Positions 937-50,625 of a stretch of DNA of 64,000 bases are shown here, in pieces. Origin of the DNA: a bacterium (GTDB lineage: Bacteria; Hinthialibacterota; Hinthialibacteria; Hinthialibacterales; Hinthialibacteraceae); contig CAXXSM010000141.1 in NCBI GenBank assembly GCA_963663405.2, forward strand, positions 1-64,000, written 5' to 3'. The notes beneath the pieces are model-generated. The model did no database searches. It saw only the letters and a program-made list of their open reading frames with translations, and was not told the origin of the DNA. How positions within the stretch are numbered: position 1 is the first letter of the stretch; every line of letters starts with the position of its first letter. The translations under genes and the position numbers were made by a program.

Positions 937-2184
937 TCAAATTTTCGTTCGATCGATATCCAAAAGGCTTATCCTCAAAATTTTCTTCTCTAAATCTTGT
1001 ATCCGTTGGGCGATCAGATAGCCTTCTTTCTTCCAAACTCTCGCTATTCGAATTTTCTTGAGCGCTTCCTCTATTCTTCCAGTCAGAAGATTTCTCATGG
1101 AATCACGCAACGATTGATTAATCGCGATTTCCCGATTCTCAATCCTCGTTTCTAACTCCTCGATCTCCGATTCCAATCCAATCTTTTGCTGTTCATCCAG
1201 TATCTCTTTCTTCAATTTCCTCCGTTCTTTTAGACTCATTTTGTCCATCAGTTGGCGCTGTTTTGCAGAAAACAGACTGGAATCCAGAGCCAGGAGTCGT
1301 TCATTGAGTGTTTTAAGAGAATCCAGTGATTTCTTCAAATAGCGATTCGATTGAAACGTCATTTGTATTTTCTGAGCGAGCAAGGATCGGGCTCGGGGAT
1401 TCCCTCCGTAATGTTGAATGGAAGAATCCAGTTCATCAAACGATGTCTTCATCTGTTTCATGCTGGACTGCATTTTTTTGATTCCAGGAATACCGACTTT
1501 CTTCAAAGAGTTCGCTTCATCGGATAATTTCTTGTTGGTGATTCGATCGGGATCGTTGTAGGAGAGTTTATGTAATTTGACTTTCAGAGCTTCACCCGGA
1601 CTCCTGGCACTCATCTTTGCTAGTGCTTTCACCAGAGAGACAAGAAATGCGATTGCGAGTAATCGATATAGAAAAGGATTGATTGTACTTGCCAGATCAT
1701 TCAAATTTGGATCGATGGTTGTGACCACCAACATCATTACAATCAACGTTAAAAGAAAAGAGAGAATCGGATTCATTTTCAAATACGAAAAAATGTGATA
1801 GAGCATAATCCCAAACAAAAGCGTCAAAATGACGATCGCCACCGTCCCAAATGAAGATAGAGTAAACTGATATCTCTTTTCCGCAGAAATCATAGAAAAG
1901 GCCAAAACTAACCCAATCCCCAAACTGACCGCTCTTCCTGCTCTACCAGGAAATCTCTTTCGAAGACTGAAATGAGCGGTTCCGATAAAGATAAGAGCAA
2001 AAATGAAAAAATCGATGATGCTAGAATGACGAAGATAAACATGGGTTGGATCGAGGATAGTATCCCACTGAGTCAAAGCAGAGAATCCATTGGGAACTGA
2101 CGATCTTGTGAATGTCCACGCGTGATGATCTATCCCATTTGCTATTCGATTTATTATCATGGATTCATATTTGTTCCTACTCAA
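937..2184 (-). CDS. Membrane protein with about 5 TM helices and a long basic coiled-coil C-terminus
   Basis: Hydrophobic runs in the N-terminal half; K/E/L-rich heptad-like C-terminal half. True start may be downstream of the listed one. Confidence 0.7.
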   Translation of the reverse strand: MSRNKYESMIINRIANGIDHHAWTFTRSSVPNGFSALTQWDTILDPTHVYLRHSSIIDFFIFALIFIGTAHFSLRKRFPGRAGRAVSLGIGLVLAFSMISAEKRYQFTLSSFGTVAIVILTLLFGIMLYHIFSYLKMNPILSFLLTLIVMMLVVTTIDPNLNDLASTINPFLYRLLAIAFLVSLVKALAKMSARSPGEALKVKLHKLSYNDPDRITNKKLSDEANSLKKVGIPGIKKMQSSMKQMKTSFDELDSSIQHYGGNPRARSLLAQKIQMTFQSNRYLKKSLDSLKTLNERLLALDSSLFSAKQRQLMDKMSLKERRKLKKEILDEQQKIGLESEIEELETRIENREIAINQSLRDSMRNLLTGRIEEALKKIRIARVWKKEGYLIAQRIQDLEKKILRISLLDIDRTKI

Positions 2185-2238
2185 ATATAAATGTTACGAT
2201 TGGAAATTCATTGAAAATTAGTCGAACCGTCAGAGTAA

Positions 2239-2376
2239 ATTTCCTGTGGAAACTCATTTTCAATTGTGATATGTGTGAAAAAATTTGTATTTTGGATGTA
2301 TGTTTTTTATTTTCTATATTGTAAGTAATAAAATAGTAACAATTAACTTATTTTATAATTATGTTCCACAGGAAAT
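2239..2376. promoter_or_regulatory. Putative archaeal-type replication origin: inverted ORB-like boxes flanking an AT-rich unwinding tract
   Basis: ATTTCCTGTGGAA (2239-2251) and TTCCACAGGAAAT (2364-2376) are exact reverse complements. The sequence between them is very AT-rich and lies directly upstream of cdc6. Confidence 0.65.
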
Positions 2377-2454
2377 CTTCCCTTCCAGTTCTCTGTCTTC
2401 ACTCTTTCAGGACAAAAAAAGATTTAAATAGTAAAAGGCTCCTTCTTATGCGGC

Positions 2455-3726
2455 ATGAGTCAGAAGATTTCCTATGGAACCGATCCGTCCACCTCGACAA
2501 CGAGCACAGAATCCCTGATTCAAGAAGCGTTTCTCCATATTGAAGACAAGAAAATCACGCTGAATCCTTCCTATCTCGATGATGAAAAACTGACTGAATC
2601 TGAACGAGTGATGGTATTACAGGAGATCTTTCAACGCAATATCCGCCAACAACAACTGCATCGATTGGCCAAATACTTGTCCCCGGTGCTCGCCGGAGAT
2701 TCGCCGGCCAATCTCCTGATCTACGGCCCGTCCGGGGCGGGCAAATCGGTCACCTGCCTACATTTTCTCAACGCTTTGGCCTCCATGTGCGGCGTCAAAA
2801 AGATCCAGTTTCAATATTATTATGTGGATCTCACCACACCGAAAACCTGTTTTGGCGCCTTGAACGAGTTGGCGTTATCCCTAGATGGGACTACCAAACG
2901 GTACCGTAAGGGCATCGCGCTGGACCAGATGCAGGAGACTGTCATCCGGGCGCTGACGACCCGCCATGACTTGGTCTGCATTGTGGTGGACGAGGTCGAT
3001 AATGTCACCTCCAACAGCGATCTCTTTTACACGTTCTTAGCCAAAACCCTGCCCAAACGGGTTCCCGTCCGCCTGTTTTACCTCTTGTTGACCAACCGGA
3101 TCGAATGGGACAAAACCCTGGATCCTCGAATTCTCTCCGTGCTCAAAAAGACGGATATCATTTTTGAGCCCTACGACGCCATGGATCTGATCGAAATCTT
3201 GAATCTCCGGGTGGAGAAAGCCCTCGACACCCGAAAAGTCGATCCCGCGGCGATCCGGAAAATCGCCGCGTACGCGTCACGGGAGAATGGGGACGCGCGC
3301 AAAGCCATCGAGTTGTTGGTCAAAGGAGTCAAAATCGCCGAAGATTCAACTGGTTATTTAGGCGTGCGTGAAGTGGATGAGGCGGATTCCTTACTGGAGA
3401 TCGACAAAACCGAACAGTTAATCCACGCTCTCGCGCCCCAACAGAAATGCGCCCTCTTGGCCTGCTATACCGGATTGCAAAACTCACATGAAAAGCTCTG
3501 GACCGGGCCCGCTTATGATATTTATCGATCCATCTGTGACCAGCGGAATGTGCGGACACTCACGCAGCGACGATTCTCTGATATCGTCAGTTTTTTGGAT
3601 ATTTATGGATTAATCAACGCCCGGGTAATCTCAAAGGGGCGGTATGGAAAAACTCGTGAGTTGTCTTCCTCTCTCCCAGAAAAAGTCGTCCATAAAGTCT
3701 TCAAGACCTGTGGGCAAAATCTTTAG
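2455..3726 (+). CDS. cdc6: Orc1/Cdc6 family replication initiator (AAA+ plus C-terminal winged helix)
   Basis: Walker A GPSGAGKS, Walker B VVDEVD, sensor-2 GDARKAIELL and C-terminal LTQRRFSDIVSFLDIYGLINARVISKGRYGKTR, all typical of archaeal Orc1/Cdc6. Confidence 0.92.
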   Translation: MSQKISYGTDPSTSTTSTESLIQEAFLHIEDKKITLNPSYLDDEKLTESERVMVLQEIFQRNIRQQQLHRLAKYLSPVLAGDSPANLLIYGPSGAGKSVTCLHFLNALASMCGVKKIQFQYYYVDLTTPKTCFGALNELALSLDGTTKRYRKGIALDQMQETVIRALTTRHDLVCIVVDEVDNVTSNSDLFYTFLAKTLPKRVPVRLFYLLLTNRIEWDKTLDPRILSVLKKTDIIFEPYDAMDLIEILNLRVEKALDTRKVDPAAIRKIAAYASRENGDARKAIELLVKGVKIAEDSTGYLGVREVDEADSLLEIDKTEQLIHALAPQQKCALLACYTGLQNSHEKLWTGPAYDIYRSICDQRNVRTLTQRRFSDIVSFLDIYGLINARVISKGRYGKTRELSSSLPEKVVHKVFKTCGQNL

Positions 3727-3742
3727 TTGTTCCCTTCCAGAA

Positions 3743-3982
3743 TTAATCGTTCCTATCCAGAAACAATGAATATTCCATTTTCTCAATGGTTCGTAAGGTC
3801 GAACGAAGAACGGTTTCTTCAAACCGGATCTCCGAAGAATTTTTGTGGAGATCTCGGCTTAATTCTTGCATACGATGACGGCAGGCATCAGCCATATTTC
3901 GCAGATCTCGGATTCTTTGAATCGTAATCCAACTTGGTGACTCATTCGCCAAAAAAGTCCGGTCTTCAAAGCAGGGATTCAT
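3743..3982 (-). CDS. Small hypothetical protein
   Basis: Start overlaps the stop of the upstream 3979-4287 ORF (ATGA coupling). Confidence 0.45.
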   Translation of the reverse strand: MNPCFEDRTFLANESPSWITIQRIRDLRNMADACRHRMQELSRDLHKNSSEIRFEETVLRSTLRTIEKMEYSLFLDRND

Positions 3983-4287
3983 GGTAGACGGTTAGGGATC
4001 GCCGGTTTGAAATGGGATTGGATCGGCGGATGGTCAAACTCCGGTTTTTTGAGAGTAAGCACCTCATACGCCTTCTTAAGAAGCAGGATTGCCTTGGGGA
4101 TATCATTGATATCAAGCCGGTGTGTGCTTTTAAAATGGCCACTTTCATTCTTGTAAATCCGTTCCACGACGACTTTCGCGCTGGTAAATAATTTTCCATC
4201 GGCGGATTGATGTGGATTCATCCAGATAGCGGCGCGAACCGCACCGGCTTTGAATTCCATCTCCGGCTTTGCGGCTATTCCAGTCAT
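3979..4287 (-). CDS. Small putative ssDNA-binding (PC4/whirly-like) protein
   Basis: KPEMEFKAGAVRAAIWMN...ERIYK...FKSTH...DIPKAIL pattern of a small family seen in mobile elements; function inferred. Confidence 0.55.
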   Translation of the reverse strand: MTGIAAKPEMEFKAGAVRAAIWMNPHQSADGKLFTSAKVVVERIYKNESGHFKSTHRLDINDIPKAILLLKKAYEVLTLKKPEFDHPPIQSHFKPAIPNRLP

Positions 4288-4539
4288 GGTTGATCACCGT
4301 ATTCCGGTTGTTTTTTGGGCGTAAATCGCCGTTTGCAGGATTTGCATTGGCGAATTCGAACGCGCCCTTCTTTCAATTTACGATAGCCCCGCCAAATTGT
4401 GTTTGACGATGAACAATAAGGACATTCAAACAGTTCTTCCATACTTGATCACCTGTAAATCAGTAAGTCTCGACATCTATATAAACCTTTCGTTTTTCGA
4501 ACCGAAACATCTATATGCTTTGCGCATATCTCCAATGGC

Positions 4540-5313
4540 ATGCTCATCCCACGAAGAAATCCAAATCCTCTGATTGCGGCGATCGACCGTGTTCACGATC
4601 GAGTGACAACAATCCAGGCCATCGCGCGGGATTTTTACGTGGCGGTGCTGCGAATGCGATACAAATGCCCACACTGCGGCCAAAAAATGAAGGTTCTCTC
4701 TCTTATGGTTTGGCGATGTTCCTGTGGTGTTCAGCTCGATCCGACAATCGAGTTTCAATCTAGCCCCTGTTGCAAAGCCAGGTTAACGAAGAAAGTGTAT
4801 CATTACGCCTGCGCGCAATGCGGCGCTGCGGTTCCATCTAAATTTCTCTTTGATGAAAGGCTGTTCGACGCGGACTATTTCAGAGAGCGGATGAAAGAAT
4901 CACGGGAACGGAAACAACAACTCCGGGAGAGGATGAGAAAACAACTTGCTGATTCCCGCTCGAAAGAACTGGAATTGGAGGATTATCCCCAATTGGAGAA
5001 CATAGCAGGATTGGAACAAGATTTAGATCGGTTGATCGGCGCCGAATCGGGGAATGATGAGTTTGCGTATGATCGTTCGGAAACGTTCTGCATGATCGAT
5101 TATCGTCACGCCATCTCCGCTCTTGTCAACGAGCGCGGCGTGCTGTTTTCAGAGATCCCAGTATTGCATCCATCCACATCGAAGGATCGAGTATGGCGGT
5201 TTATTACCTTGATTTTCATGGAACATGACCGGGAAGTCCATTTGCGGCAAGAGGGGGACGATATCTGGGTGTTCAAACGGGATTGCTATGAGGAGATCGA
5301 AAACCTTAAATAG
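4540..5313 (+). CDS. Zn-ribbon protein with ScpA/kleisin-like C-terminal winged helix
   Basis: CPHC, CSC, CC and CAQC clusters; C-terminal RVWRFITLIFMEHDREVHLRQEGDDIWV resembles the ScpA C-terminus. Confidence 0.55.
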   Translation: MLIPRRNPNPLIAAIDRVHDRVTTIQAIARDFYVAVLRMRYKCPHCGQKMKVLSLMVWRCSCGVQLDPTIEFQSSPCCKARLTKKVYHYACAQCGAAVPSKFLFDERLFDADYFRERMKESRERKQQLRERMRKQLADSRSKELELEDYPQLENIAGLEQDLDRLIGAESGNDEFAYDRSETFCMIDYRHAISALVNERGVLFSEIPVLHPSTSKDRVWRFITLIFMEHDREVHLRQEGDDIWVFKRDCYEEIENLK

Positions 5314-5680
5314 AACATCTATCTTGAAATGGTATGTGAAACTGACACAAAAGGATTTAGAGTTTATTCAACGGTTGAAAGGTTTGTTTGAGGAGAACGA
5401 TCTGTCGATCGAACTGAAGCAGACCGATCCGAAAACATTGGTGTTGCGAAAAAATTATGGGACGAAAATAGAGCGCGCGTTTGGCATGACGCGTCAGGGA
5501 ATCCGCTGGAGGTTCCAACGGTTACTGAACGATATTTACGTTAGCGCGTATGAAACGATCTATTGGATAGAATCCACCTTTGGTCCAAGCCTTCGTTCCC
5601 AGGCGCTTGAAATTGCGAAGCAACGAGTGACATTACGCAAACGAGTCAATCAAGCTAATCGATCCTACCGCCCTAAATAA
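5288..5680 (+). CDS. HTH-type DNA-binding protein
   Basis: IERAFGMTRQGIRWRF helix-turn-helix pattern; ATG at 5288 overlaps the previous gene. Confidence 0.55.
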   Translation: MRRSKTLNRTSILKWYVKLTQKDLEFIQRLKGLFEENDLSIELKQTDPKTLVLRKNYGTKIERAFGMTRQGIRWRFQRLLNDIYVSAYETIYWIESTFGPSLRSQALEIAKQRVTLRKRVNQANRSYRPK

Positions 5681-5681
5681 A

Positions 5682-6095
5682 ATGTCTTCCACAAAAATCG
5701 AGATCAATCACAACACAATAGCCCGACTGGAATCCACGGATGAGTTGGCGCGGATTCTCTTTCCGGATAACTCTAATCATCAAAAGATTTTTCTGTCGAT
5801 CTTTGTGGAACTGAAATGGGCCAAGGATCAGTTCTTACCGGTTCTGGATCCCATCGTGGATCAACTGGGTTTGAGCCGCCGGAGTTTGGAGACGGTTCGC
5901 GCCAAAATGCGGCGAATGGGGCTGATTGATCATGTCTCCCGGTTCAACAAAACCTACGGCTATCGGGAAGGTTGGGTGTTTTCTAACAAGTTCCCCCGGG
6001 CCCTAGTGAAAGTGGCCAATCTGGTTCTAAATTTCCGACAGAAGAAGGATTCCGTCCAGGAACAAAAAGAACGGGATTTGATATTTTATCTTTGA
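5682..6095 (+). CDS. Winged-helix DNA-binding protein
   Basis: IVDQLGLSRRSLETVRAKMRRMGLI wHTH pattern; starts 1 nt after the previous stop. Confidence 0.65.
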   Translation: MSSTKIEINHNTIARLESTDELARILFPDNSNHQKIFLSIFVELKWAKDQFLPVLDPIVDQLGLSRRSLETVRAKMRRMGLIDHVSRFNKTYGYREGWVFSNKFPRALVKVANLVLNFRQKKDSVQEQKERDLIFYL

Positions 6096-8419: not shown

Positions 8420-9514
8420 ATGAACACTATTACCTGTCAACTTTGTGGAGAGTCAATCCATGGCTCCTTGTATGGTCACTTGGGTGAATGTCACCGTACA
8501 ACAGCGCAAGAGTATCTGAAGCAATATCCAGGCGCGCCTTTGGTGGCTCCAGAATTGCTCAACCAGATCCAATCCGGCAAAACCGTCAAACGAACGCCCG
8601 TCCAAGCCACAGCGGAATTCAGGATTCATGATGCGGCGCTGAAAAAGAGAAATGGAACAAGCCCTATAGTGCCTAAACCTGACTCACATTATCAATTCCC
8701 GCCCGAAGCCGCCTACCTGATCCACGCCATTAACCACCAGGAAAATGTCATGATTGTCGGTCCGACCGGCACCGGGAAGAGTTCGCTGGTCATGCAGCTC
8801 GCCGCTCAGACCAATACTCCTCTAAGGCGCTGCAACCTGAATGGTGAGACCACAGTCTCTGATTTCTTGGGCCGCTGGACCGTCCGCGGGAAAGAGATGG
8901 TTTATAGCGAAGGCATCTTGCCCACCGCGATGAAAAACGGAGATTGGCTGCTACTCGATGAAATCGATGCGGCTCTGCCGAATATTCTGTTTGTGCTCCA
9001 GAGCGTGCTCGAAGAATGCGGCAAGCTCACGCTACTTGATAAAGACGGTGAGATTATCGCACCCCATCCAGATTTTCGCATCATCGCCACAGCCAATACG
9101 CTTGGTAATGGGGATGAAACTGGGCTATACGCTGGTACGCAGATTCTCAATGAAGCCTTTAAAGACCGCTTCGATACAGTCATCTACCTGGATTACCCGG
9201 ATGAGAAGACTGAGACCGAAATCCTCTCTCAAAAAGTCTCCAGCCTAAAAAAGACCGATATCAGACGTCTGGTGAAATGCGCACGCCAGGTCCGAGAAGC
9301 GGCGGAACGCGAAGAATGCTATTGCAGTTTCTCCACACGGCGGTTGCTCGCGTTCGCCAGGAAATACGATCAACTAGGCAATCTAACCAAAGCGTTGGAA
9401 CTAACTGTTCTCAACAAGCTCTCCCGTGATGACCGGCGCGTCGTTGAAGAGATCGCACAGCGTCGCTTGGGAGATCTCATGAATCCTCAACCGAAAGGAG
9501 CGAATGAAAAATGA
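8420..9514 (+). CDS. MoxR/CbbQ/CobS-like AAA+ ATPase with N-terminal C2H2-like finger
   Basis: GPTGTGKS, LLLDEIDAA, FRIIATANT, DRF, FSTRRL; N-terminal CQLC...H..CH. Confidence 0.88.
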   Translation: MNTITCQLCGESIHGSLYGHLGECHRTTAQEYLKQYPGAPLVAPELLNQIQSGKTVKRTPVQATAEFRIHDAALKKRNGTSPIVPKPDSHYQFPPEAAYLIHAINHQENVMIVGPTGTGKSSLVMQLAAQTNTPLRRCNLNGETTVSDFLGRWTVRGKEMVYSEGILPTAMKNGDWLLLDEIDAALPNILFVLQSVLEECGKLTLLDKDGEIIAPHPDFRIIATANTLGNGDETGLYAGTQILNEAFKDRFDTVIYLDYPDEKTETEILSQKVSSLKKTDIRRLVKCARQVREAAEREECYCSFSTRRLLAFARKYDQLGNLTKALELTVLNKLSRDDRRVVEEIAQRRLGDLMNPQPKGANEK

Positions 9515-11390
9515 AAAACCTAAATGGATTAGAAACCACCTTAGAGCGTGTCGGACGGATTTTATCCCGCAAGTACAACATCTCGGTCCAATGCAAAGGA
9601 AACGAATGCAAGACCGATGGTCGAACCATCTGGCTGCCGGCTCTTCCGGACAACATCTCAGAATCGTTGTGGAGTTTGGTCCGTGGCGAGCTCGATCATG
9701 AGACCGCCCATATCCTCTTCAGCGACTTTGACGGCCGTATGAAAGATTTCAAACGGAAATGGGGCGCTTTTGGATTCGACACGCTCAATGTCATCGAAGA
9801 TGTGCGCGTCAATTACGCTATGCAGAAGGAGTATCCAGGTTCCCGGCACAACATCCTTCACAGTATCGCGGAGATCACTCACACTCATCCCATCGATCAA
9901 ATGCCTCTGCCGGTTCGGTTTCTCTGCGGCTTGTTCCTCGCTGGAATGGATCTGCCCTATGACCAGTATGGCGAAGACGCGATCAAAATGGTGGAACAAT
10001 TCAAGAACGACACAAAGCGGTTCAAATCCCTCCGGAACACCAACGAAGCCTGTGCGATGGCGGAAAGCATCCTGGAACGCCTCAAGCATAAAGCTGAGCG
10101 AGAAAGACAACCTTCAAATGCAAATCAGCCTAACAGCGCGGAAAAGAACCAAGATTCACAGTCACAATCCTCATCTGGAGAATCCAATCAAGAATCAACT
10201 GAGAAGGATCAGCGATCATCAAAATCCGCTTCTTCTAACGGTCAAGAAGACTCTGGCAATCGTCAAAACGGTTCTGAGGAACAAAAAGATGATTCTGTGT
10301 ATCAACAAAATGCTTCGAACTCGGATGAACACTCGAACTCAAAAAGTAGTCTATCCGAAGAGTCTAAGACTGGATATCAAGGCGTCATGAATCAGGCCCT
10401 AGCTGGACAATATTCGTCCTCCGGCCATCCATTCGAGCTTCAGGGAACTATCAGAGAGCAAGTCCAAGAAGAATTCAGCGATGGAACAAACCAAGCCTAC
10501 CGGGTCTACGATCCATCGCTGGATAAAGCTGTTAAGCCTTTATCATTGGATAATGGTGAAACCTATCAAAACTTGAGCAATGCCGTTCGTCCCCATGTCG
10601 GCGCTCTTCGGCAGCAGTTGATTCGAACTCTCCGATCGCGCGATACCCGATTCTGGGTCAGCGATCGGGAAGAAGGCCAAGTCAACAGCAAAAAGCTTTA
10701 CGCGCTGCTCAATCAGGGCTCGAACAAAGTCTTTCGGCAAATCCAGGAATGCGAATCGGATTCGGTGGCGGTGTCGCTTCTTATCGATCTATCCGGTTCA
10801 ATGAACGGCCCGCGCATCTACTTGGCCCGCCAAGTCGTCATTCTGTTCGCTGAAACGCTCAATCAGCTGCGTATCCCATCGGAGGTGATCGGTTTCACAA
10901 CTGAGCCTTCCAAACGAGCCTTTGCCCGATTGACACGGGAAACGGGAATGGATTTGCAGGCACTCTCGCAACTCTATACCCGCTTCTTTCCCTGTGTCTA
11001 TTCCATCTTTAAGGCGTTCGACGAACCATTCCGGGCGCTGAAGCCTCGCGTTCCCTCCATGAACGCCCTGGAATACACGCCGATTGACGACGCCATTATT
11101 TTCTCTGCAAAACGGATCGTCGTTCGGAAGGAAACACGAAAAATCATCCTGGTCCTCACGGATGGAGAACCGTACAGCGGAAATCCAACGATGCAGCTGG
11201 CTGTCATCAAGCATCTCGAATGAAAACCTGCGCAAATGCGATCAGGCCGGAATCGAGTGTGTGGCCGTTGGCATCCAAACGGATTACGTGAAGAACTTTC
11301 TTCAAAGAGAACGTGGTCGTTCAAAACCTGCCAGAACTTCCTAAAGCGTTCTACACAAAGTTTTCAGAATTACTCTGCAAAAACCGGTAG
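9511..11390 (+). CDS. CobT-like vWA protein (N-terminal HExxH domain, low-complexity linker, MIDAS vWA); frameshifts near the 3' end
   Basis: HETAH; DLSGSM, TP and TDG MIDAS residues. The frame breaks at about 11220 and continues (ENLRKCDQAGIECVAVGI...LPKAFYTKFSELL) to TAG 11390. Confidence 0.82.
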
Positions 11391-11444
11391 TAACCAATTC
11401 TTCTGCAACATTTAACCATTCAATATCGAAAGGAGATTTCATCA

Positions 11445-11660
11445 ATGGGTACCTGTGTCCAAAATCCATCCTGTTTCGCCCTGTTTGATCCCATCGCTCC
11501 GGAATGCGCGAGCTGTGGCATCCAAACCGATTGCATGCGTGAACAAGAAAGACGTCTCAGCGATTGTGATTCACAACCAACCGCAGCGGAGCGTCGAATC
11601 GGCTACCAACATCGAATCAAAGTTCTAAAACAGAAAAGAAAGGAGAAAATCACCTGCTAA
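11445..11660 (+). CDS. Small Cys-rich protein
   Basis: PSCF...ECASCGIQTDC; AAGGAG RBS. Confidence 0.55.
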   Translation: MGTCVQNPSCFALFDPIAPECASCGIQTDCMREQERRLSDCDSQPTAAERRIGYQHRIKVLKQKRKEKITC

Positions 11661-11684
11661 AAAAACAAATAACCAGTTCTGGAG

Positions 11685-11924
11685 ATGAGCAATACATCCC
11701 CGAACACACTCGCAAACCGTCTGGAAATCCCACCGGTTGGCTCCACGATTCAAACCACCTACCGTGGTCAAACCTACGAAGCGCTCATCGTGGATGATCC
11801 ATCCAACAAACGTTCCAATGGCCGATCCATCCTGTTCAACGGAACGGTCTATCGAACACTGACCGCCGCCGCGCACGCCATTGCGCCTGGAATCAATTCT
11901 GGATCGGTCTGGCAAGAAATCTAA
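11685..11924 (+). CDS. RAMA/DUF4357-like DNA-binding domain protein
   Basis: FNGTVYRTLTAAAHAI...NSGSVW resembles the RAMA signature (S/T)xxAA...NGW. Confidence 0.55.
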   Translation: MSNTSPNTLANRLEIPPVGSTIQTTYRGQTYEALIVDDPSNKRSNGRSILFNGTVYRTLTAAAHAIAPGINSGSVWQEI

Positions 11925-11926
11925 TA

Positions 11927-12361
11927 ATGAAAGGAACATCAATCATGAACGATAATGGAAACAAAACAACGAAAACAAATAACCGAACAAACAATTCTCG
12001 TAGAGCCTTGGGACGTGGATTGAAAGATATTCTGTCCGAGCAATCGATCTTCGACAGCCATTTCAACGATCTTCAAGAACACGTCAAAGCCGCTCGAATC
12101 GGCGCGGCGATTCTCGAACTAATCGATATCGTTGAAGCCAAGTATCAACCTGTGATCTTCCAAAGCGTCTCCGCCTATCGGGCTGTAGCTCAGGAAGAAT
12201 CTACCGAAGAAATCGGCCGGATAAGCTTTCAGAACTGGAACGTCAGCGTATCCATCGTGAAACGGAGTGTCAGAAACCGAAACGACGATGGTATTACTTG
12301 TATTTACGATAATTGGATGATGTCATCTGTTTTGAAGGGGAGAAATCCCCTTTTTTTTTGA
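11927..12361 (+). CDS. Hypothetical protein with ParB-like N-terminal peptide
   Basis: RRALGRGLKDIL matches the ParA-contacting peptide of ParB/Spo0J; no ParB CTPase box visible. Confidence 0.5.
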   Translation: MKGTSIMNDNGNKTTKTNNRTNNSRRALGRGLKDILSEQSIFDSHFNDLQEHVKAARIGAAILELIDIVEAKYQPVIFQSVSAYRAVAQEESTEEIGRISFQNWNVSVSIVKRSVRNRNDDGITCIYDNWMMSSVLKGRNPLFF

Positions 12362-12533
12362 GGAATTATCTTCCATATAGAAAATTATTCGCGAACATAA
12401 TCCAGATATTTTTCCTTGATGGACCTTTTGTTTATCGTACACTTACTCCTCACAAATGGATCTTGATGAATTCACTTCGACGAGATCCTCCAGCCAACTG
12501 GTCCAAGGGTGGCCAGTTAGCCGGAGGATAAAA

Positions 12534-13418
12534 ATGAAATCAAACCAAAATACCAAAGATCGGATCCAGCAAAGTCGAAAAATCATCCAGGAGACCATCG
12601 CCAAATTGGGAGAACAGCTGGAGAAAGGATACTCCATTGAAATGACTCGATACCTGAAAACCATGGCGCTTTTCCATACATATTCCACCTCCAATCAATT
12701 TCTCATTTTGGCCCAGCGCCCCGAAGCCACTCAAGTCGCCGGATTCCAAACCTGGAAACGTCTCCATCGATCCATTAAACGCGGCGAAAAAGCCATCCGC
12801 ATCCTCGCTCCGATTTGCACCAAAAAGAAAACAGTTTCAATACAGCCAAAAGAAACAAAGCAAGAAGACTCGAAAGATCCAGTTGAAGAAGACACAATAT
12901 ATTCGTTCCGCACGGTCTGTGTTTTCGATCTGGCGCAGACACACGGCTCAAAGTTACCCGAACCGTTTCGAGCACATGGTGAAGCGAGACAATGTCTTTC
13001 CATGCTGGAGCAAACTGTTAGAAACAATGGAATCCAGCTCGATTATGGATACACGGGCCGGGCGTATGGCTACTCTAAAAAAGGATCCATCACAATCAAA
13101 ATGGGAATGGAATCCGCCGAAACCTTCGCTGTGCTTGCGCATGAATTCGCCCATGAGATTCTCCACCAAAGACAAACAACCAACGATTCCCGTTCGTTGC
13201 GTGAATTGGAGGCCGAAGCCGTCGCCTGTGTTGTCTGTGAACGATTTGGTGTGCAGACTATTCAAGCGTCCTCCGATTACATCCGTCTCTGGGAAGGAGA
13301 CAAAACCAAACTGCTCAATCGTCTGGAGAAGATCCGCCGGTGCGCATCCACAATCATTACCCAGATAGAATCTCTTGCCAAAGAGGAGAAGAGATCACAT
13401 CCCATGGCTATTGATTGA
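12534..13418 (+). CDS. ardC: ArdC-like ssDNA-binding antirestriction protein with HExxH metallo-domain
   Basis: FHTYSTSNQFLI..Q, VAGFQTWK..R.IKRGEKAIRILAP, VFDLAQT, HEFAH, ELEAE; GGAGG RBS before ATG 12534. Confidence 0.85.
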   Translation: MKSNQNTKDRIQQSRKIIQETIAKLGEQLEKGYSIEMTRYLKTMALFHTYSTSNQFLILAQRPEATQVAGFQTWKRLHRSIKRGEKAIRILAPICTKKKTVSIQPKETKQEDSKDPVEEDTIYSFRTVCVFDLAQTHGSKLPEPFRAHGEARQCLSMLEQTVRNNGIQLDYGYTGRAYGYSKKGSITIKMGMESAETFAVLAHEFAHEILHQRQTTNDSRSLRELEAEAVACVVCERFGVQTIQASSDYIRLWEGDKTKLLNRLEKIRRCASTIITQIESLAKEEKRSHPMAID

Positions 13419-13626: not shown

Positions 13627-15609
13627 TTATTTCACGAAATCTTGGACTTGTTTCACTTTGATGGGGATCTTGGTTTCCATTTCATCGATCACTTTTAGAA
13701 TCTGATTCTGCGTTTCTGGTTTGGTAGTTAGGATGAAAATCCCTCGATAATCTCCCGCTAGATTCTTCCGGATATTTTCCCTCCAATTTGATTTTCCCGT
13801 TTCAATCTCCACCGCAATTTTTTGGCCGTTCTTTTCCGCCACAAGATCGGTATATCCATGGCCGGATTCTTCTTTCGTTACGGTCCAATCCAAATGAACG
13901 AATTGTTGGGCGGCTTTTTCTTTCCAGAACTCATGTTCCAAACTGCCCCAACGGGATTTATCCGGAACGTCATATCCCATATTACGTAAGATGATTCTTC
14001 CCTTTGACGTTATAGCCAACAAAACCGTTTTCCCGCTATATGTTCGAATCTCTTCCGGTTCAATCATTCCTTTTTCGATACACGCTTCCCGAATCGCGTT
14101 TCCTTTCCTGCGGCTTAGATGAAGATGCCGGTACCGCTCCACCGCGCCAAACAGTGGATTCTGAAACACATCGATCAAAAAGGTTTTTTCTTTCTCATTC
14201 AATTGGAAAGTGATAGCATCCTTTTCACCTTGTACGACCTCCTCATACTCCGCATAAGGATTAAGGATATTCCGTTCTACCATGTGCTGCGCCAAAGCAG
14301 TATCGTTCACAGAACCTTTGGGGATTTTTCGATGAGGAATCGAGATCTCAAATGGTTGCAGCCAGCGGCCCTGCAATTTGACAACCGCACGTCCAATTGG
14401 CAGCCGCCCCAATAATTCCCGCTCTTCGTTGTCAATCAGCATCGCTCCACCCGCCGCGTTGACATCGGATCGGTGTTTCAGATTCATACAGATCGTGGCG
14501 TAGGTGTTACCCATGGCGGGAATCGAGATCAAACTCGGATGCTGATCCACCAACACGATCCCTTCCCCCAACTCCCGGATTTCCCGGAGGATGGTGTCGG
14601 TGATCGCTTCGCCACCGCTCCCGGCGCCGGATCGTTTCAGTAAAATGTGATGCGCTTCCTCGATGATCATGGCGTGTTTGAAGGTCTCCCGGTCTGGCTG
14701 CGTCAATCGATAATGATGAATCCACAGAAGAAGCGACTCGATCGTGAATGTTTTATCCGCGTTCGTCAGGCTATCCAACTCCAGTATGACATTCTTGGTC
14801 AACAGATTGGCCACATTCGATTGCACGCTGGTGTTCATCACGTTACCCATATGCCCGAAACAGATCGATCGAACACCCCGCAAAGCGGAATCCATCCATT
14901 GCGCTTTGCGCCCTTTGACTGGATGTTTTTCGAGCCATTCCAGAACATCTTGAAAGGTGGGATATTTGGAAGGATTTCCTTTGTAGACACCGAAGGAGTG
15001 ATACACCGCATCAATCGCTTCCTGGAGAAGATACATGACGCCCTCTCCCAAGTAGTAGGAGTGAGCGATAATCTCGATCATTTTTTTGAGCCAGACCGCC
15101 GCGCTGGTTCCTTCCGGAGGAATCAATGGATTGAACGCGAAGGGAACAGTCTGCCCTCCAACTGTATATACTAAAATTTCATCCTTCCGAACGGATAAAA
15201 GATCCCGGTAATTCCGCTTCCAGTCAAACAAAAGGAACGGCTTTTTTTGATCCAGCAAACTATCCAAAAGGACAAAGACCGTATTGGTTTTTCCCGCTCC
15301 CGACCGGCCAAAGATCGCGGTATGTTGAATCAGTTCATCTTCCCGGAGCCCAAATGGATGAAGCGGCCGATCGCAATAGACCACCGAACCGAGCTTATAT
15401 GTACCATCAGCCTTATCCTGTGGTGGAGCGGATAAATGAACATCAGGAACCTGAACGTTCACGCCCAGATGTTGAGCGGCTAACAGTTGTAACGCGATCT
15501 CCAATTCCTGTTTCCCGCGATTGTCCTCGGCCAGATAGGCCAACCACAATCGATCCGCCCGATCGCCTAACACGGGTTTCAACTTCCGGCATAATTCATA
15601 GACCTCCAT
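13627..15609 (-). CDS. HerA/FtsK-superfamily (DUF87-like) ATPase with C-terminal wHTH and PD-(D/E)xK-like domain
   Basis: GRSGAGKT, IIEEAH, DQHPS, GRA; C-terminal TDLVAEKNGQKIAVEIETGKS. Confidence 0.85.
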   Translation of the reverse strand: MEVYELCRKLKPVLGDRADRLWLAYLAEDNRGKQELEIALQLLAAQHLGVNVQVPDVHLSAPPQDKADGTYKLGSVVYCDRPLHPFGLREDELIQHTAIFGRSGAGKTNTVFVLLDSLLDQKKPFLLFDWKRNYRDLLSVRKDEILVYTVGGQTVPFAFNPLIPPEGTSAAVWLKKMIEIIAHSYYLGEGVMYLLQEAIDAVYHSFGVYKGNPSKYPTFQDVLEWLEKHPVKGRKAQWMDSALRGVRSICFGHMGNVMNTSVQSNVANLLTKNVILELDSLTNADKTFTIESLLLWIHHYRLTQPDRETFKHAMIIEEAHHILLKRSGAGSGGEAITDTILREIRELGEGIVLVDQHPSLISIPAMGNTYATICMNLKHRSDVNAAGGAMLIDNEERELLGRLPIGRAVVKLQGRWLQPFEISIPHRKIPKGSVNDTALAQHMVERNILNPYAEYEEVVQGEKDAITFQLNEKEKTFLIDVFQNPLFGAVERYRHLHLSRRKGNAIREACIEKGMIEPEEIRTYSGKTVLLAITSKGRIILRNMGYDVPDKSRWGSLEHEFWKEKAAQQFVHLDWTVTKEESGHGYTDLVAEKNGQKIAVEIETGKSNWRENIRKNLAGDYRGIFILTTKPETQNQILKVIDEMETKIPIKVKQVQDFVK

Positions 15610-17024: not shown

Positions 17025-17810
17025 TTAGGATTGAGGCGAATTTTTTTTGGATTGCCGCTTCAGCCGTTTTTTGGATTCCTTGAGCCGGTAACTTTCTCCG
17101 TTGGCTTCCAGGATGTGCACTCGATGAGTCAATCGATCCAGGAGGGCTCCAGTTAAGCGCTCACTGCCCATGACCTCCGTCCATTCCTCGAAAGGCAAAT
17201 TCGTCGTCACGATGAGGCTGGTCCGTTCATACGCCTGACTGACGACATCAAAGAGAAGTTCGGCTCCCGCCTTAGAGAACGGGACATATCCGAGTTCGTC
17301 CAAAATTAGGAGATGATGATTGAGCAATTGTTTCTGCAATCGTTCCAAAGACCGCTCTTCTCGTTTTTCCAGTAAGTGAGTGACAAGAGTTGTCACCGTG
17401 TAGAACCGAACCTTGTAGCCTTGCGCGCAAGCGGCGAATCCCAAGGCGCAAGATAAATGGCTTTTCCCAGTCCCCGGATTCCCGATCAGGAGCAAATTCT
17501 CCCGTTTTTCGATATATTCCCCTTGGAGCAATTCACGGACTAAGGATTCATTAATCGACGGCTGCGCGCTGAAATCAAAGGTATCGATCGTTTTGACCAC
17601 GGGAAATTTGGCCGCTTTCACCCGCCGATCCGCCGCTCTCTGCTCCCGTTCGATCGATTCCAATTCAGACAGCCGAAGGAGATACGTAGTAAAATCCGAA
17701 CGATCGGCGCGGCACTTGGCCGCCATGCTTTGATACTCGCGCAAGAACGTCGGCAGTTTTAATTTTTTCAGATAGTATTCCAGCAATACGTTCGATTGGG
17801 AGGAACTCAT
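17025..17810 (-). CDS. istB: IS21 helper ATPase IstB
   Basis: GNPGTGKSHL, LILDELGY, IVTTN, LLDRLTH, GESYR. Confidence 0.95.
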   Translation of the reverse strand: MSSSQSNVLLEYYLKKLKLPTFLREYQSMAAKCRADRSDFTTYLLRLSELESIEREQRAADRRVKAAKFPVVKTIDTFDFSAQPSINESLVRELLQGEYIEKRENLLLIGNPGTGKSHLSCALGFAACAQGYKVRFYTVTTLVTHLLEKREERSLERLQKQLLNHHLLILDELGYVPFSKAGAELLFDVVSQAYERTSLIVTTNLPFEEWTEVMGSERLTGALLDRLTHRVHILEANGESYRLKESKKRLKRQSKKNSPQS

Positions 17811-19338: not shown

Positions 19339-19473
19339 GTCCGAGGAATTCTGACTTGGACGATTTCTTCCAGGTATCGGCTTTTATATACCGCACTTTT
19401 GGACCGCCGTTTTTACGCCGACTTCTCACTCACTTTTCGACCGCCGTTTACACCGGCTTTATAACAACGCTAG

Positions 19474-25992: not shown

Positions 25993-25993
25993 T

Positions 25994-28501: not shown

Positions 28502-29014
28502 TTATCTCCTCGCCTGGCTCGCGCGATTTTCATGTTCTTGGTGGAGCTGCTCGCTCTCCTGCCGGGCCTGCTCTGAGCGTTGCTCGTGTTCGGTCAGGAA
28601 CTCGATATCCTGTTCCGCTGCCTCTCTGGCCCGTTCCAATTCGCCGCTGGCGTTGTCACTATGGATTGCCGATTGGGCGTCCGCTATTTTCGCTTGATCC
28701 ATCGTGGCGCTTTCTGAGCGTTCGTTCAGATCCGTCTCGTGTTCTTCCGTCTCTGAATGGACCTCTTCCAATTCGTGACTCTCCTCTTCGAATTCGCCGC
28801 CACTCACATCTTGCGCAGTGTCAATATTCTGCTCGATCTCGTCCGTTCCTTCCGCCGTGCCTCGCCGTTCCAACGCTTCCAGCGTTTCACGCTCCAATTC
28901 CAGGTCAGAAACCGTCAATTCAATCTCCTCTCCTTTGTCATTCATCTCATTCTGATGCAGGTCGACTGTGTCGGTCACTTCAATTCGGGTTGGCATATCG
29001 CTTCGGTTGTTCAT
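28502..29014 (-). CDS. Highly acidic coiled-coil protein
   Basis: E/D/Q-rich heptads; ATGA-coupled to the upstream ATPase. Confidence 0.7.
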   Translation of the reverse strand: MNNRSDMPTRIEVTDTVDLHQNEMNDKGEEIELTVSDLELERETLEALERRGTAEGTDEIEQNIDTAQDVSGGEFEEESHELEEVHSETEEHETDLNERSESATMDQAKIADAQSAIHSDNASGELERAREAAEQDIEFLTEHEQRSEQARQESEQLHQEHENRASQARR

Positions 29015-44306: not shown

Positions 44307-44454
44307 TTACTTCTAGAGTGGTTTGCAAAAAAACGTTCGTTTAAGCGGTCCGGAAAATCCAAAAAAACCTGGATTTTCCAGATCGGAACGCGCTCTCAAT
44401 CCGAATATAGTTTTGGAAACCGCTATAAAAACAGATTGCAAAGGGGAAGAACCG

Positions 44455-49100: not shown

Positions 49101-49364
49101 ATGGACGCGCATGAAAAAATCAATCTTGAGGAAATGTTGACAACAAACGAAGTTGCCGCCATCTTAAAGAAACATCCTGTTACGATTCGGCGTATGGTGA
49201 ATCGTAAAAAGAATCCTCTTCCATGCCGAAGAATCGGAGGTACTTTGCGCTTTTGGCCGCAGGAAATCAATGACTGGATTGAACGGCATGGAACATCAGG
49301 TAAAGAAGTGTCTCAATTCATAAGGAGTAAAAAGCATGTCTTGGGTGAGATCGCGAAAATCTAA
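49101..49364 (+). CDS. Excisionase-like HTH_17 protein
   Basis: MLTTNEVAAILKKHPVTIRRMV...RIGGTLRF...I.DWI; overlaps the integrase start. Confidence 0.8.
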   Translation: MDAHEKINLEEMLTTNEVAAILKKHPVTIRRMVNRKKNPLPCRRIGGTLRFWPQEINDWIERHGTSGKEVSQFIRSKKHVLGEIAKI

Positions 49365-50598
49365 AGCATCCCCTTCGGGGAAAAATTGGTACTATTGTTA
49401 TAGGGACCAAGGCAAAATTGAAACAAGAAGAATTCCAAATGCTTTTACAAGGGAGCAAGCGGAACTTATTCAAAAAGAATGGGATGAATTGTTATCAACA
49501 TCTCAAGTCGAATTGAGCGTAACATTTGAGGAACTTGCTGGCGCACTGATAGCGGCGGATCAAAATGCCGATTTAAGTCCTCGTTATATAGAAGAAAAGA
49601 AACGCTATTTTAGAAAATCACTATTCCCCTTTTTGGGGAGAAATACTCTGGTGAAAGAAATCAAAATTGGTCAAATCAAAGATTGGATCACTTCTCGTAA
49701 ACGTGATTTTGGAAAAAAGGGGGGGAAAATTAAGGATTCAACGATCAAGCATGAGTTTTACACACTGTCCGCCACTTTTGCGCTTGGATTCGAGCGAGGT
49801 ATTCTACAAGAAAACCTGTGTAAGAAAATCGTCTTGAAACGGTTATTGAATAATGGTGAAACAGCAAACAAAACCGCTCTTTCTATCGAAGAGATTCAAC
49901 ATCTAATTGAATCGGCGGAGAATCACACAAAACTTTTTATCCAAATCGCGGCTTGCACGGCTGCTCGAAAAGGCGAAATACTCCAACTTCAGTGGGAAGA
50001 TATCGATTTTAAAGAGAAAACGATCACTTTCCGACATGATCCTGAAAACGGCCAAAGGATCAAGTCAAAACGTACTGTAACACTCCCAATAGGATCTTAT
50101 TTGATCGATGCTTTGAAAAAAGCGAAATCTGACACCATAGGACCATGGATCTTTCACCATCCGGATGGTTCGAGAATGTTAGATGTAAAACGGAGTTTTT
50201 CAACGGCGGTAAAGCGAGCGGGTTTAGGCGCCAACGTCACTCCCCATATCCTTCGACACAGCGTAAATACGATCTTAATGGAGAAACATATTCCTCAAAG
50301 TGATGTCAGAGATTTCCTGAGACACGCTGATTTCAGAATGACATCACATTATGGTCATAGTCGAGAAGAAAGACTTCGGTCAGTCGCTGAATCGTTGAAT
50401 TTCGATCGTCGTGTGAGCGAAAGTCCGAAACTGGTACAGCAGGTTGCTACACCAAATGCTGTACCAGACGAAAATTTGAAGGAAATTTTGAGCAAAGTTG
50501 CAACGATTTTAGATACTGTAAGTACTGTAGAATCAATGAGTTGTTGGTTGGAGCGGGAGACCGGGATCGAACCGGCAACCCTCAGCTTGGAAGGCTGA
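49336..50598 (+). CDS. int: Tyrosine recombinase/integrase
   Basis: ARKGEILQLQWEDID, KSK, PHILRH, LRHADFRMTSHY catalytic residues. Confidence 0.95.
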   Translation: MSWVRSRKSKASPSGKNWYYCYRDQGKIETRRIPNAFTREQAELIQKEWDELLSTSQVELSVTFEELAGALIAADQNADLSPRYIEEKKRYFRKSLFPFLGRNTLVKEIKIGQIKDWITSRKRDFGKKGGKIKDSTIKHEFYTLSATFALGFERGILQENLCKKIVLKRLLNNGETANKTALSIEEIQHLIESAENHTKLFIQIAACTAARKGEILQLQWEDIDFKEKTITFRHDPENGQRIKSKRTVTLPIGSYLIDALKKAKSDTIGPWIFHHPDGSRMLDVKRSFSTAVKRAGLGANVTPHILRHSVNTILMEKHIPQSDVRDFLRHADFRMTSHYGHSREERLRSVAESLNFDRRVSESPKLVQQVATPNAVPDENLKEILSKVATILDTVSTVESMSCWLERETGIEPATLSLEG

Positions 50599-50625
50599 TG
50601 CTCTGGCCAGTTGAGCTACTCCCGC
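50549..50625 (-). tRNA. tRNA-Gly(TCC), probable integration site
   Basis: Reverse complement GCGGGAGTAGCTCAACTGGCCAGAGCATCAGCCTTCCAAGCTGAGGGTTGCCGGTTCGATCCCGGTCTCCCGCTCCA folds as a cloverleaf with TCC anticodon and encoded CCA. Confidence 0.97.

Follow-up and report, generated by a model that had tools for sequence, protein, structure and literature searches.

The window analysed here, a stretch of 64,000 nucleotides (nt) of contig CAXXSM010000141.1 (assembly GCA_963663405.2, from a bacterium of the Hinthialibacteraceae), contains an orc1/cdc6 gene accompanied by three boxes that resemble the archaeal origin recognition box (ORB): two of them are inverted around an AT-rich tract upstream of the gene, and the third lies on its first codons. 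The three-box layout, with its order, its orientation, and its AT-rich tract, recurs at the starts of bacterial homologues across many phyla. We interpret it as an archaeal oriC1-type replicator-initiator cassette on an integrative, probably conjugative, bacterial element, and we give this interpretation a probability of about 0.6. Coordinates are collected in Table 1, and the gene product is called Cdc6 throughout.

The orc1/cdc6 gene and its boxes in the window

An earlier note on this DNA had described a full Orc1/Cdc6 gene behind a perfect 13-nt inverted pair that brackets about 110 nt of very AT-rich DNA, and both parts of this description were borne out. The 423-aa open reading frame (ORF) matched the Pfam domain Cdc6_C (E 2.8e-21), together with the Cdc6 lid and AAA domains, and scored 245.5 bits against the NCBIfam model TIGR02928 (“orc1/cdc6 family replication initiation protein”), above the cut-off of 181.3. 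Residues 64-412 aligned with the solved structures of Sulfolobus Orc1-1 (2qby_A, E 1.6e-45) and Aeropyrum ORC1 (2v1u_A, E 4e-45). The 13-nt sequence TTCCACAGGAAAT occurs twice without mismatch, once on each strand, and the tract enclosed by the two copies has an A+T content of 82%, compared with 54% over the first 13 kb of the window. The inverted boxes end 79 nt ahead of cdc6.

As a description of the pair the two-box account stands, as one of the complete set it does not: a third box, TTCCATAGGAAAT, had been overlooked. Boxes 2 and 3 form the best inverted repeat of the region (17/18 nt, arms 82 nt apart). When up to two mismatches were allowed, the whole window contained 9 box matches against 2.37 expected (standard deviation 1.37), a number reached by none of 100 shuffles; of the four matches with at most one mismatch, three fall in this 240-nt stretch. 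The fourth, TTCCAAAGGAAAT at 43764-43776 (-), lies within an ORF 41 kb away and is probably a chance occurrence.

No Rfam family matched the region 1800-4600 at E <= 1. The single-strand fold of 2225-2490 was not unusual (z -1.39), and its sole stable helix was the pairing of box 2 with box 3. From the cdc6 stop codon onward, two 20-nt repeats stand in tandem at 3723-3762 (TTAGTTGTTCCCTTCCAGAA / TTAATCGTTCCTATCCAGAA), and an 11-mer of these repeats, TTCCCTTCCAG, is also found directly 3' of box 2 (2378-2388). We considered the tandem repeat as a possible part of the cassette and rejected it: it is absent after the stop codons of the homologues and is within chance expectation for the window.

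The box core compared with archaeal ORBs

The archaeal consensus box is CTTCCAGTGGAAACGAAAGGGGT, and that of the Methanomassiliicoccales is GTTCCAGTGGAAATGG-AGGGGTA, with variants such as GTTCCACTGGAAAT (PMC4153887); a euryarchaeal box is given as GTTCCAGTGGAAAC-AAA----GGGGG (PMC1868953). By our own count, the core in the window agrees with the archaeal consensus at 10 of 13 positions and, when the flanking G is included, with a Methanomassiliicoccales box at 13 of 14. The bacterial box GTTCCACAGGAAAT matches the published archaeal mini-ORB, and at Planctomycetota-type loci the core is, letter for letter, TTCCAGTGGAAAT or TTCCACTGGAAAT of the published forms.

Past the core, the bacterial boxes share a 3' extension (consensus TTCCA..GGAAATtTaCtC), in which tTaCtC is conserved. 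On the level of sequence, the bacterial core is thus an archaeal mini-ORB in which the G-string is absent and a conserved 3' extension of its own is present instead. Mini-ORBs without a G-string are known at Sulfolobus oriC2 (PMC4010727). In archaea, inverted ORBs flank an AT-rich unwinding element beside the initiator gene, and each ORB binds one Orc1-1 monomer with a defined polarity (PMC4010727; PMC12141716).

Conservation of the three-box layout

A scan of one genome per species yielded 48 related loci (given L numbers), 47 of which are on records titled bacterial. Seven loci without the 5' end of the gene (L011, L014, L032, L041, L044, L045, and L047) were left out of the box survey. Core density was determined on 42 sequences, namely the window, 40 bacterial loci, and one archaeal locus (L048), and palindromic core sites were counted on both strands, inside and outside the start regions alike. 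With at most one mismatch, the core TTCCANNGGAAA had 133 matches in the 18,324 nt between -400 and +60 of the starts (7.26 per kb) and 55 matches in the 409,050 nt elsewhere in the same sequences (0.134 per kb). L012, L030, and the archaeal L048 gave no match to this core. Such confinement to cdc6's own upstream region would be expected if the boxes serve an origin with autoregulation, and would not be expected of a broad regulon.

The oriented 13-nt pattern revealed a near-universal order, in which a minus box 190-300 nt upstream is followed by a plus box 50-110 nt upstream and by a minus box at +2 to +29. In many Thermodesulfobacteriota loci, box 3 reads ATGTCCGATGGAA on the coding strand and includes the start codon. 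For a test of the three zones, we used the 37 sequences with at least 330 nt upstream (the window and 36 bacterial loci; L003, L019, L039, and L040 were dropped for their short upstream regions and L048 for being archaeal), taking the best box per zone and requiring a score of at least 9/11. Box 1 was found in 32 of the 37, box 2 in 31, box 3 in 31, and all three in 25. Among 392 decoy ORF starts the corresponding numbers were 40, 15, 13, and 1, and in shuffled regions, as means of 37, they were 1.5, 0.8, 0.6, and 0.0. The earlier note had staked its reading on the boxes being kept upstream of bacterial homologues, and kept they are.

The spacer between boxes 1 and 2 has a median length of 146 nt (88-247) and is richer in A+T than the locus mean in all 29 sequences with both boxes, by +0.173 on average. 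For comparison, 169 other intergenic regions of similar length averaged +0.034 (90th percentile +0.113), and the 43 divergent ones among them +0.047. The spacer between boxes 2 and 3 (median 86 nt, 63-108, in 26 sequences) exceeds the locus mean by only +0.043. Box 1 is retained also at loci with another upstream neighbour or with one in the same orientation.

Residues of the protein

In Sulfolobus Orc1-1, origin binding is weakened by mutation of R341 (the sole base contact, in the helix-turn-helix, HTH), of R365 (in the wing), and of G120/L121 (in the initiator-specific motif, ISM) (PMC3089459). The structure alignment places these residues at R372, R396, and G153/I154 of the window protein, respectively. 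The index of the Sulfolobus chain is offset by 11, which was checked by the correspondence of E147, the Sulfolobus Walker B residue (PMC12141716), with E180.

Two protein alignments were examined, one of 27 bacterial relatives and one of 13 sequences including archaeal-type representatives. R372 and R396 are invariant in both, and so are the Walker A motif GPSGAGKS, D179/E180, N214, and the GDAR motif (G279-D-A-R282). G153 is invariant among the 27 sequences and nearly so (>=90%) among the 13; I154 is nearly invariant in the set of 27 only. In the N-terminal ~60 residues, a motif around LDDE.L...E...V...IF...IR is common to both bacterial clades, and the archaeal-type N-terminus is different in the 13-sequence alignment. 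As aligned, the DNA-contact and ATPase residues are kept and the N-terminus is changed with respect to archaeal-type initiators.

Relationships and carriers

More than 400 relatives of the window protein were found among public proteins. One is a near-copy with 97% identity; the next 119 among the matches listed are 55-71% identical, and those with names come from Hydrogenedentes and Thermodesulfobacteriota. A search of 1.84 billion representatives gave 2761 matches at E <= 0.001. Like the window protein, none of the representatives P0121-P0136 (46-32% identity) reaches E 1e-90 to any NCBIfam model, and the next 34 tested (28-32% identity) all match NF001625, “ORC1-type DNA replication protein”, with 325-533 bits (cut-off 501). 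In a cluster look-up of distant homologues, one of ten was named (a Micrarchaeota Cdc6), and NCBIfam scores were used for labelling.

The Cdc6 phylogeny was obtained with an IQ-TREE quick search (LG+C20+F+G4) on 77 full-length rows: the window, 35 bacterial loci, six unlabelled intermediates, 34 NF001625-type representatives, and a distant Halobium paralogue as the root. The tree left out 12 of the 49 family members, whose length was outside 395-460 aa, and the taxonomy of its metagenome-assembled genomes (MAGs) depends on binning. All bacterial rows and the six intermediates formed one clade (SH-aLRT 99) beside the archaeal ORC1-type initiators; 33 of the 34 archaeal-type rows formed one group (SH-aLRT 82), and the 34th stood alone at an unresolved base. 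The rows nearest to the window were from Sumerlaeota and Hydrogenedentota.

By these scores and this tree, the nearest canonical relatives are the ORC1-type initiators of NF001625 and no other paralogue family. The window Cdc6, with its place in a separate clade of bacterial sequences and its own N-terminus, is by the same token not a recent archaeal drop-in. The tree would fit a single ancient event, acquisition or divergence from Orc1-1-type initiators, after which mobile elements spread the gene among bacteria.

The names at about phylum level in the related loci are Hydrogenedentota, Sumerlaeota, Thermodesulfobacteriota, Spirochaetota, Zixiibacteriota, Bacteroidales, Planctomycetota, Kiritimatiellae, Victivallales, Balneolales, and Nitrospiraceae. 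The carriers include the closed genome of Desulfosarcina variabilis (NZ_CP159846.1), the cultured Desulfocarbo indianensis (two copies) and strain NaphS2, and three closed MAG chromosomes of 4.8-8.2 Mb with four loci, one chromosome having two copies. Two to five copies per genome were seen: L006 and L008 (OY759590.1), L015 and L016 (Desulfocarbo indianensis), and L004, L005, L010, L017, and L030 (one MAG). The Cdc6 sequences of L025 (a Bacteroidales MAG) and L019 (a Desulfobacterales MAG) are almost identical (end branches 0.016 and 0.005), as is the DNA after the stop codon, which indicates either a very recent cross-phylum transfer or a binning error.

These carriers bear on the possibility of a chimera, in which misassembly or faulty binning would have attached archaeal DNA, the left part of the window, to a bacterial contig; the earlier note had named such a chimera as one finding that would overturn its reading. 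At least one contamination or misassembly screen has employed TIGR02928 as a chromosomal marker of archaeal Cdc6/Orc1 (preprint 10.64898/2026.05.20.726742), and the best NCBIfam names of the integrase and of one ATPase of the window are archaeal (a XerA-type recombinase and the DNA-translocating ATPase CedD), though far below the cut-offs. On the other hand, the bacterial records comprise the closed isolate genome, the two cultured strains, and the three closed MAG chromosomes; the bacterial copies form one clade apart from the archaeal-type sequences; and a standard integrase/tRNA junction ends the element in the window. Chimerism cannot account for the cassette in general, since isolates and closed chromosomes have it too, and for the window itself we consider a chimera scarcely credible. 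Conversely, genuine bacterial contigs could be flagged as archaeal by such a screen, because bacterial genes pass the TIGR02928 cut-off.

Replication origin or operator

In the mechanism that we propose, the Orc1-1-like protein would bind as monomers to the three ORB-like boxes, and in its ATP-bound form would distort and open the AT-rich tract flanked by the inverted boxes 1 and 2. Replication of the element would start at the opened tract, most likely after excision. Binding at boxes 2 and 3 would silence the promoter and leader of the initiator gene itself, in the manner of the DnaA boxes in the dnaA promoter. Host DnaB might be recruited, which is a guess, possibly via the clade-specific N-terminal 60 residues. 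The conserved boxes and AT tract support the earlier note's idea of an origin with an archaeal-style initiator in a bacterium; binding, autoregulation, unwinding, and replication by the Cdc6 cassette are what we infer from them.

Binding of Cdc6 to its cognate boxes is very likely, because the box is co-inherited with the initiator down to 37% protein identity, because the residues that contact the box in archaea are kept, and because the boxes are restricted to the region upstream of their own gene. The position of box 3, on the start codon or the first codons, would by its anatomy make autoregulation part of the design. Replication and autoregulation, which had been offered as alternatives, are therefore both kept, as two parts of one design. 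A working origin is favoured over a mere operator for four reasons: the succession of box, AT tract, and box corresponds to the layout of archaeal origins; the tract exceeds other intergenic DNA in A+T by a wide margin; the ATPase motifs show no variation; and the 50 kb of the element within the window yielded no replication initiator family besides Cdc6, although a mobile element needs an initiator.

Several observations weigh against this interpretation. Some concern the protein and its boxes. Against the equivalog model NF001625, the window protein scores 238.7 bits, under the cut-off of 501. None of the three boxes in the window is followed by a G-string, as had been noticed before, and a consensus scan between the boxes found no sigma-70-type promoter, so that the position of the cdc6 promoter is only presumed. 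Two of the copies in one MAG (L010 and L017) have an in-frame stop ahead of the part coding for the winged helix and, for this reason, look dead.

Others concern the helicase. The statement of the earlier note that the window holds no MCM or DnaB agrees with our Pfam scan of its 63 ORFs of at least 90 aa, none of which belongs to either family or encodes another replicative helicase. The Walker A motifs in the window are those of Cdc6, a MoxR-like ATPase, two HerA/VirB4-like ATPases, IstB, and the coupling-protein-like ORF; in addition, the pattern alone is matched once in a 103-aa ORF that belongs to no known family (36810-37121). No replicative helicase occurs among the conserved neighbour families of the homologous loci. 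Furthermore, neither MCM nor DnaB nor any other replicative helicase was found among 72 large unclustered ORFs (>=280 aa, within 6 kb of homologues), one of which encodes a superfamily 2 (SF2) helicase; many of the 72 are ordinary host genes, which places the cassette at the edge of an element or in a small island in several genomes. To our knowledge, there is no precedent for an Orc1-type initiator working with a bacterial helicase.

The remaining points concern free replicons. In PLSDB, 420 plasmid records matched, all below 60% identity, and the 40 listed were all haloarchaeal, at 26-32%. No phage record matched the window protein, and none of the 14 whole-contig loci had ends that overlap as those of a circle do. 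Several loci have host housekeeping genes no more than a few kb away, on one side or both, and some copies may for that reason be remnants or domesticated regulators.

These points fit the most serious alternative, in which Cdc6 would be a transcription regulator only, having lost initiation, and would repress its own and the divergent promoter through the boxes, the AT tract being promoter DNA. Such proteins exist: the archaeal Orc1-2 is an Orc1 paralogue, not an initiator, that acts as a DNA-damage-responsive global transcription regulator (PMC9738581). A regulator would be coherent with the location of the promoter and leader between box 2, about 90 nt upstream, and box 3 on the start codon, with the divergent gene that starts from the same region in the window and has relatives near cdc6 in eight other loci, with the missing helicase partner, with the lack of a free replicon, and with the position of some loci among host genes. 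It would not explain why the tract exceeds other intergenic regions in A+T to such a degree, the divergent ones included, nor why box 1 is kept where the upstream neighbour is another gene or is co-oriented. The boxes are not spread over other promoters, the ATPase motifs and the ISM are conserved (the Walker and sensor motifs invariantly), and the closest relatives are the initiator family NF001625. We regard a pure regulator as unlikely, yet as an explanation to be kept in mind.

Within the origin interpretation, a broader proposal can be made only tentatively, and we doubt it: a class of bacterial elements in ten or more phyla might replicate with Orc1 and an ORB origin, its initiator, without an MCM to work with, having been rewired to load a bacterial DnaB-type helicase, perhaps via the N-terminal module LDDE.L...E. 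If true, this would be a third, cross-domain route of bacterial replication initiation beside DnaA and plasmid Rep.

The element and the genes around the cassette

The element that carries the cassette is integrative and probably conjugative, and its host is a bacterium, a setting indicated by the integrase/tRNA end, the transfer-type ATPases, and the bacterial trpS and mutL beyond that end. The tRNA-Gly(TCC) is the sole tRNA in the window. TrpS is bacterial-type and MutL matches TIGR00585 with 531 bits; the nearest named relatives of MutL are from Candidatus Omnitrophota (61%) and Candidatus Hinthialibacter (59%). Within the window, no 14-mer from the tRNA region turns up a second time as a direct repeat of the element end. 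Since the tRNA end has no second copy there, the element must be longer than 50 kb, with its left end beyond position 1.

Ahead of the integrase lie an HTH_17 protein, excisionase-like, and a primase of the AEP-TOTE / PrimPol type (47610-48638; Pfam E 4.8e-33, PADLOC PrimPol E 1.3e-29), the second archaeal-style replication gene of the element. The genes for transfer and integration have an unusual character; the HerA/VirB4-like ATPases and the coupling-protein-like ORF have weak family matches only. The region 8420-13418 encodes a MoxR-like AAA ATPase with a CobT/VWA partner, then an ArdC-like anti-restriction protein, typical cargo of plasmids and of integrative and conjugative elements. At 17025-19429 there is an IS21-type insertion with an intact IstB (E 1e-75); the transposase region upstream is split over three ORFs, and the copy looks broken because only one of the three carries the rve core. 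Between 26 and 47 kb almost no ORF has a Pfam family. The G+C content within the element is 38-51% over 1-25 kb and 51-60% over 26-47 kb, and this step at about 25000-26000 suggests a mosaic of two modules.

The neighbour ORFs of the loci were clustered, and the family counts include the window. Relatives of the divergent gene at 937-2184 lie within 6 kb of cdc6 in eight other loci, mostly directly beside it (nine sequences with the window). In the three-gene set downstream of cdc6, another example of which is found at L006:7709-9494, the product of 4540-5313 has zinc ribbons and, at its C-terminus, a winged helix, and the other two products are small. The conserved neighbours matched no family in Pfam, PHROGs, or PADLOC, and in the Atlas they matched only unnamed bacterial clusters and an automatic “FdhE” name. 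For the small protein of 3979-4287, no structural match was obtained at E <= 0.001 (the best was Borrelia Pur-alpha, E 0.066). A Replic_Relax (relaxase-like) protein, ParA, a PD-(D/E)XK nuclease, a HerA-like ATPase, and integrases also recur in the neighbourhood of the homologues.

The recurrence of ParA, the relaxase-like protein, and integrases near the homologues would agree with a role of the boxes and the protein in partition (as a centromere-like complex), in excision control, or in transfer control, instead of vegetative replication. In addition, the modelled C-terminal domain of the 4540-5313 product resembles the winged helix of the kleisin ScpA (E 7e-3, TM 0.64-0.68; Atlas lead 0.78); being above E 0.001, these structural matches are weak, which reduces their value for a partition system. 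We know of no partition or excision system with an Orc1-type AAA+ protein, and this also counts against such a role. Moreover, the inverted boxes around an AT tract beside the initiator gene follow the archaeal origin layout (PMC4010727; PMC12141716). We judge a partition, excision, or transfer function improbable.

An anti-phage or conflict system, with the Cdc6-like NTPase as sensor or switch, is more improbable still. It would draw on a weak PADLOC match of the AAA+ core (mad8, E 2e-4, 18.9 bits), on the AEP-TOTE-family primase, which Pfam describes as a conflict-system domain, and on the NACHT, caspase, or KAP NTPases found among the neighbours in some other loci. The mad8 match, however, is the sole PADLOC match of the protein and is limited to the P-loop region, effector domains are neither fused to Cdc6 nor its constant neighbours, and a defence function would leave the three conserved ORB boxes and the AT tract at the gene's own start without a reason.

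Table 1. Positions of the cassette, of the motifs of its protein, and of other features of the window
Feature	Position	Strand	Basis or remark
ORB-like box 1, core TTCCACAGGAAAT (2239-2251), 3' extension TTTACTC (2233-2239)	2233..2251	-	Perfect match
AT-rich tract, candidate duplex-unwinding element, 112 nt, 82% A+T	2252..2363	.	Between boxes 1 and 2
ORB-like box 2, TTCCACAGGAAAT, inverted relative to boxes 1 and 3	2364..2376	+	Perfect match
Spacer between boxes 2 and 3, 90 nt, 60% A+T, presumed cdc6 promoter and leader, start codon at 2455	2377..2466	+	
ORB-like box 3, TTCCATAGGAAAT, one mismatch	2467..2479	-	cdc6 codons 5-9; + strand reads ATT TCC TAT GGA A
orc1/cdc6 gene, 423 aa	2455..3726	+	ORF list, Pfam, NCBIfam, structure match, alignments
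Clade-specific N-terminus	Residues 1-63 of Cdc6		Alignment of 13 sequences
Walker A, GPSGAGKS	Residues 91-98 of Cdc6		
Initiator-specific motif (ISM)	G153/I154 of Cdc6		
Walker B	D179/E180 of Cdc6		
Winged helix	R372 and wing G395-R396-Y-G398 of Cdc6		Preceded by the lid
Divergent gene, 415 aa, 4-5 predicted membrane segments and coiled-coil-like tail	937..2184	-	No known family
Small neighbour, 102 aa, modelled as four strands and a helix (pLDDT 78)	3979..4287	-	7 sequences including the window
Three-gene set: 4540-5313, 5225-5680, 5682-6095	4540..6095	+	Near cdc6 in 18, 15, and 18 sequences including the window
HerA/VirB4-like ATPase ORFs	13627-15609 and 29011-32019		
Coupling-protein-like ORF	44323-46920		
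Right end of element: tyrosine integrase 49336-50598 (+) abutting tRNA-Gly(TCC) 50549-50625 (-)	49336..50625		
Host genes past the right end	trpS 54554-55543; mutL 55622-57676		

Novelty and significance

Classifications of AAA+ proteins have noted ORC/Cdc6-like AAA+ genes that occur sporadically in bacteria, and the presence of Cdc6 genes in bacteria was already visible, because some database records name them “Cdc6/Cdc18 family protein”. The conserved origin-like cassette in bacteria appears to be undescribed. Bacterial Orc1/Cdc6 genes with ORB boxes did not turn up in the searchable full-text literature, outside which lie most subscription journals and the supplements, and they are not described in the accessible portions of PMC5862659, 10.1101/2024.09.03.610885, PMC3914693, and PMC11880632. 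The last of these, an opinion article of 2025, keeps to the division made in textbooks and recent reviews, with DnaA as the initiator of bacteria and Orc1/Cdc6 as that of archaea and eukaryotes. The cassette is unexpected because bacteria are thought to initiate replication with DnaA-type or plasmid Rep proteins.

What is new is that an archaeal replicator-initiator pair is found on a bacterial mobile element, where the boxes have an extension of their own, one box lies at the start codon, the N-terminus is altered, and no MCM gene is nearby. The archaeal replicator logic, that is, the initiator, its cognate box, and the layout of box, duplex-unwinding element (DUE), and box, is kept complete under selection in bacteria of many phyla. 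If the cassette fires, it becomes testable which helicase Orc1 loads in a cell without MCM, and likewise how portable origin-initiator pairs are between domains and how mobile elements spread them. Cultured carriers exist in Desulfosarcina variabilis, Desulfocarbo indianensis, and strain NaphS2.

Comparison with known systems

The closest known system is the archaeal oriC1 with Orc1-1, as in Sulfolobus (ORB2-DUE-ORB3 beside orc1-1) and in Aeropyrum (ORC1 with its ORB). The cassette shares with it the inverted boxes around an AT tract beside the initiator gene, the mini-ORB core, the domain order of the protein, the HTH arginine, the wing arginine, and the ISM glycine. The likeness of the sites covers their layout, the polarity of the boxes toward the DUE being no part of the comparison. 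The differences are the bacterial host and the mobile element, the TTTACTC extension in place of the G-string, a further box at the start codon, a different N-terminus whose ~60 residues are conserved in the bacterial sequences alone, no MCM gene nearby, and a score below the NF001625 cut-off.

The orc/cdc6 origins of haloarchaeal plasmids and minichromosomes, and the Orc1 of integrated archaeal elements, resemble the cassette in that the initiator gene travels with its own boxes (PMC4010727). Haloarchaeal plasmids were also, among the PLSDB matches listed, the only plasmid records matching the window protein; the low identity, however, and the separate bacterial clade set the two apart. Haloarchaeal hosts, moreover, possess MCM.

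In the bacterial DnaA-oriC system, an AAA+ initiator is encoded beside the origin, its boxes stand next to an AT-rich unwinding element, and boxes in the dnaA promoter provide autoregulation. The cassette has the same elements, namely the initiator beside the origin, the repeated boxes, the AT-rich element, and boxes at its own promoter, and the analogy between the two kinds of origin is drawn in PMC4010727. In contrast to DnaA, Cdc6 belongs to another AAA+ clade, has a winged helix in the place of DnaA domain IV, and would recognize another box, and the route by which DnaA loads DnaB has no known counterpart here.

In iteron plasmids, rep is preceded by its own repeats and an AT-rich region, and inverted repeats over the rep promoter lead to autorepression. 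Those with a winged-helix Rep share with the cassette the nature of a mobile replicon and an initiator gene behind its own repeats and AT-rich region. A distant winged-helix relation between Rep and Orc1/Cdc6 has been proposed (preprint 10.1101/2024.09.03.610885). Rep, however, is without the AAA+ ATPase module, whereas the window protein is a full Orc1/Cdc6.

Finally, Orc1-2 has the same family membership and the same three modules, and it shows that members of the family can act on promoters (PMC9738581). Unlike the targets of that global regulator, the boxes described here are found only upstream of their own gene, and the nearest relatives of the protein are of the initiator type, NF001625.

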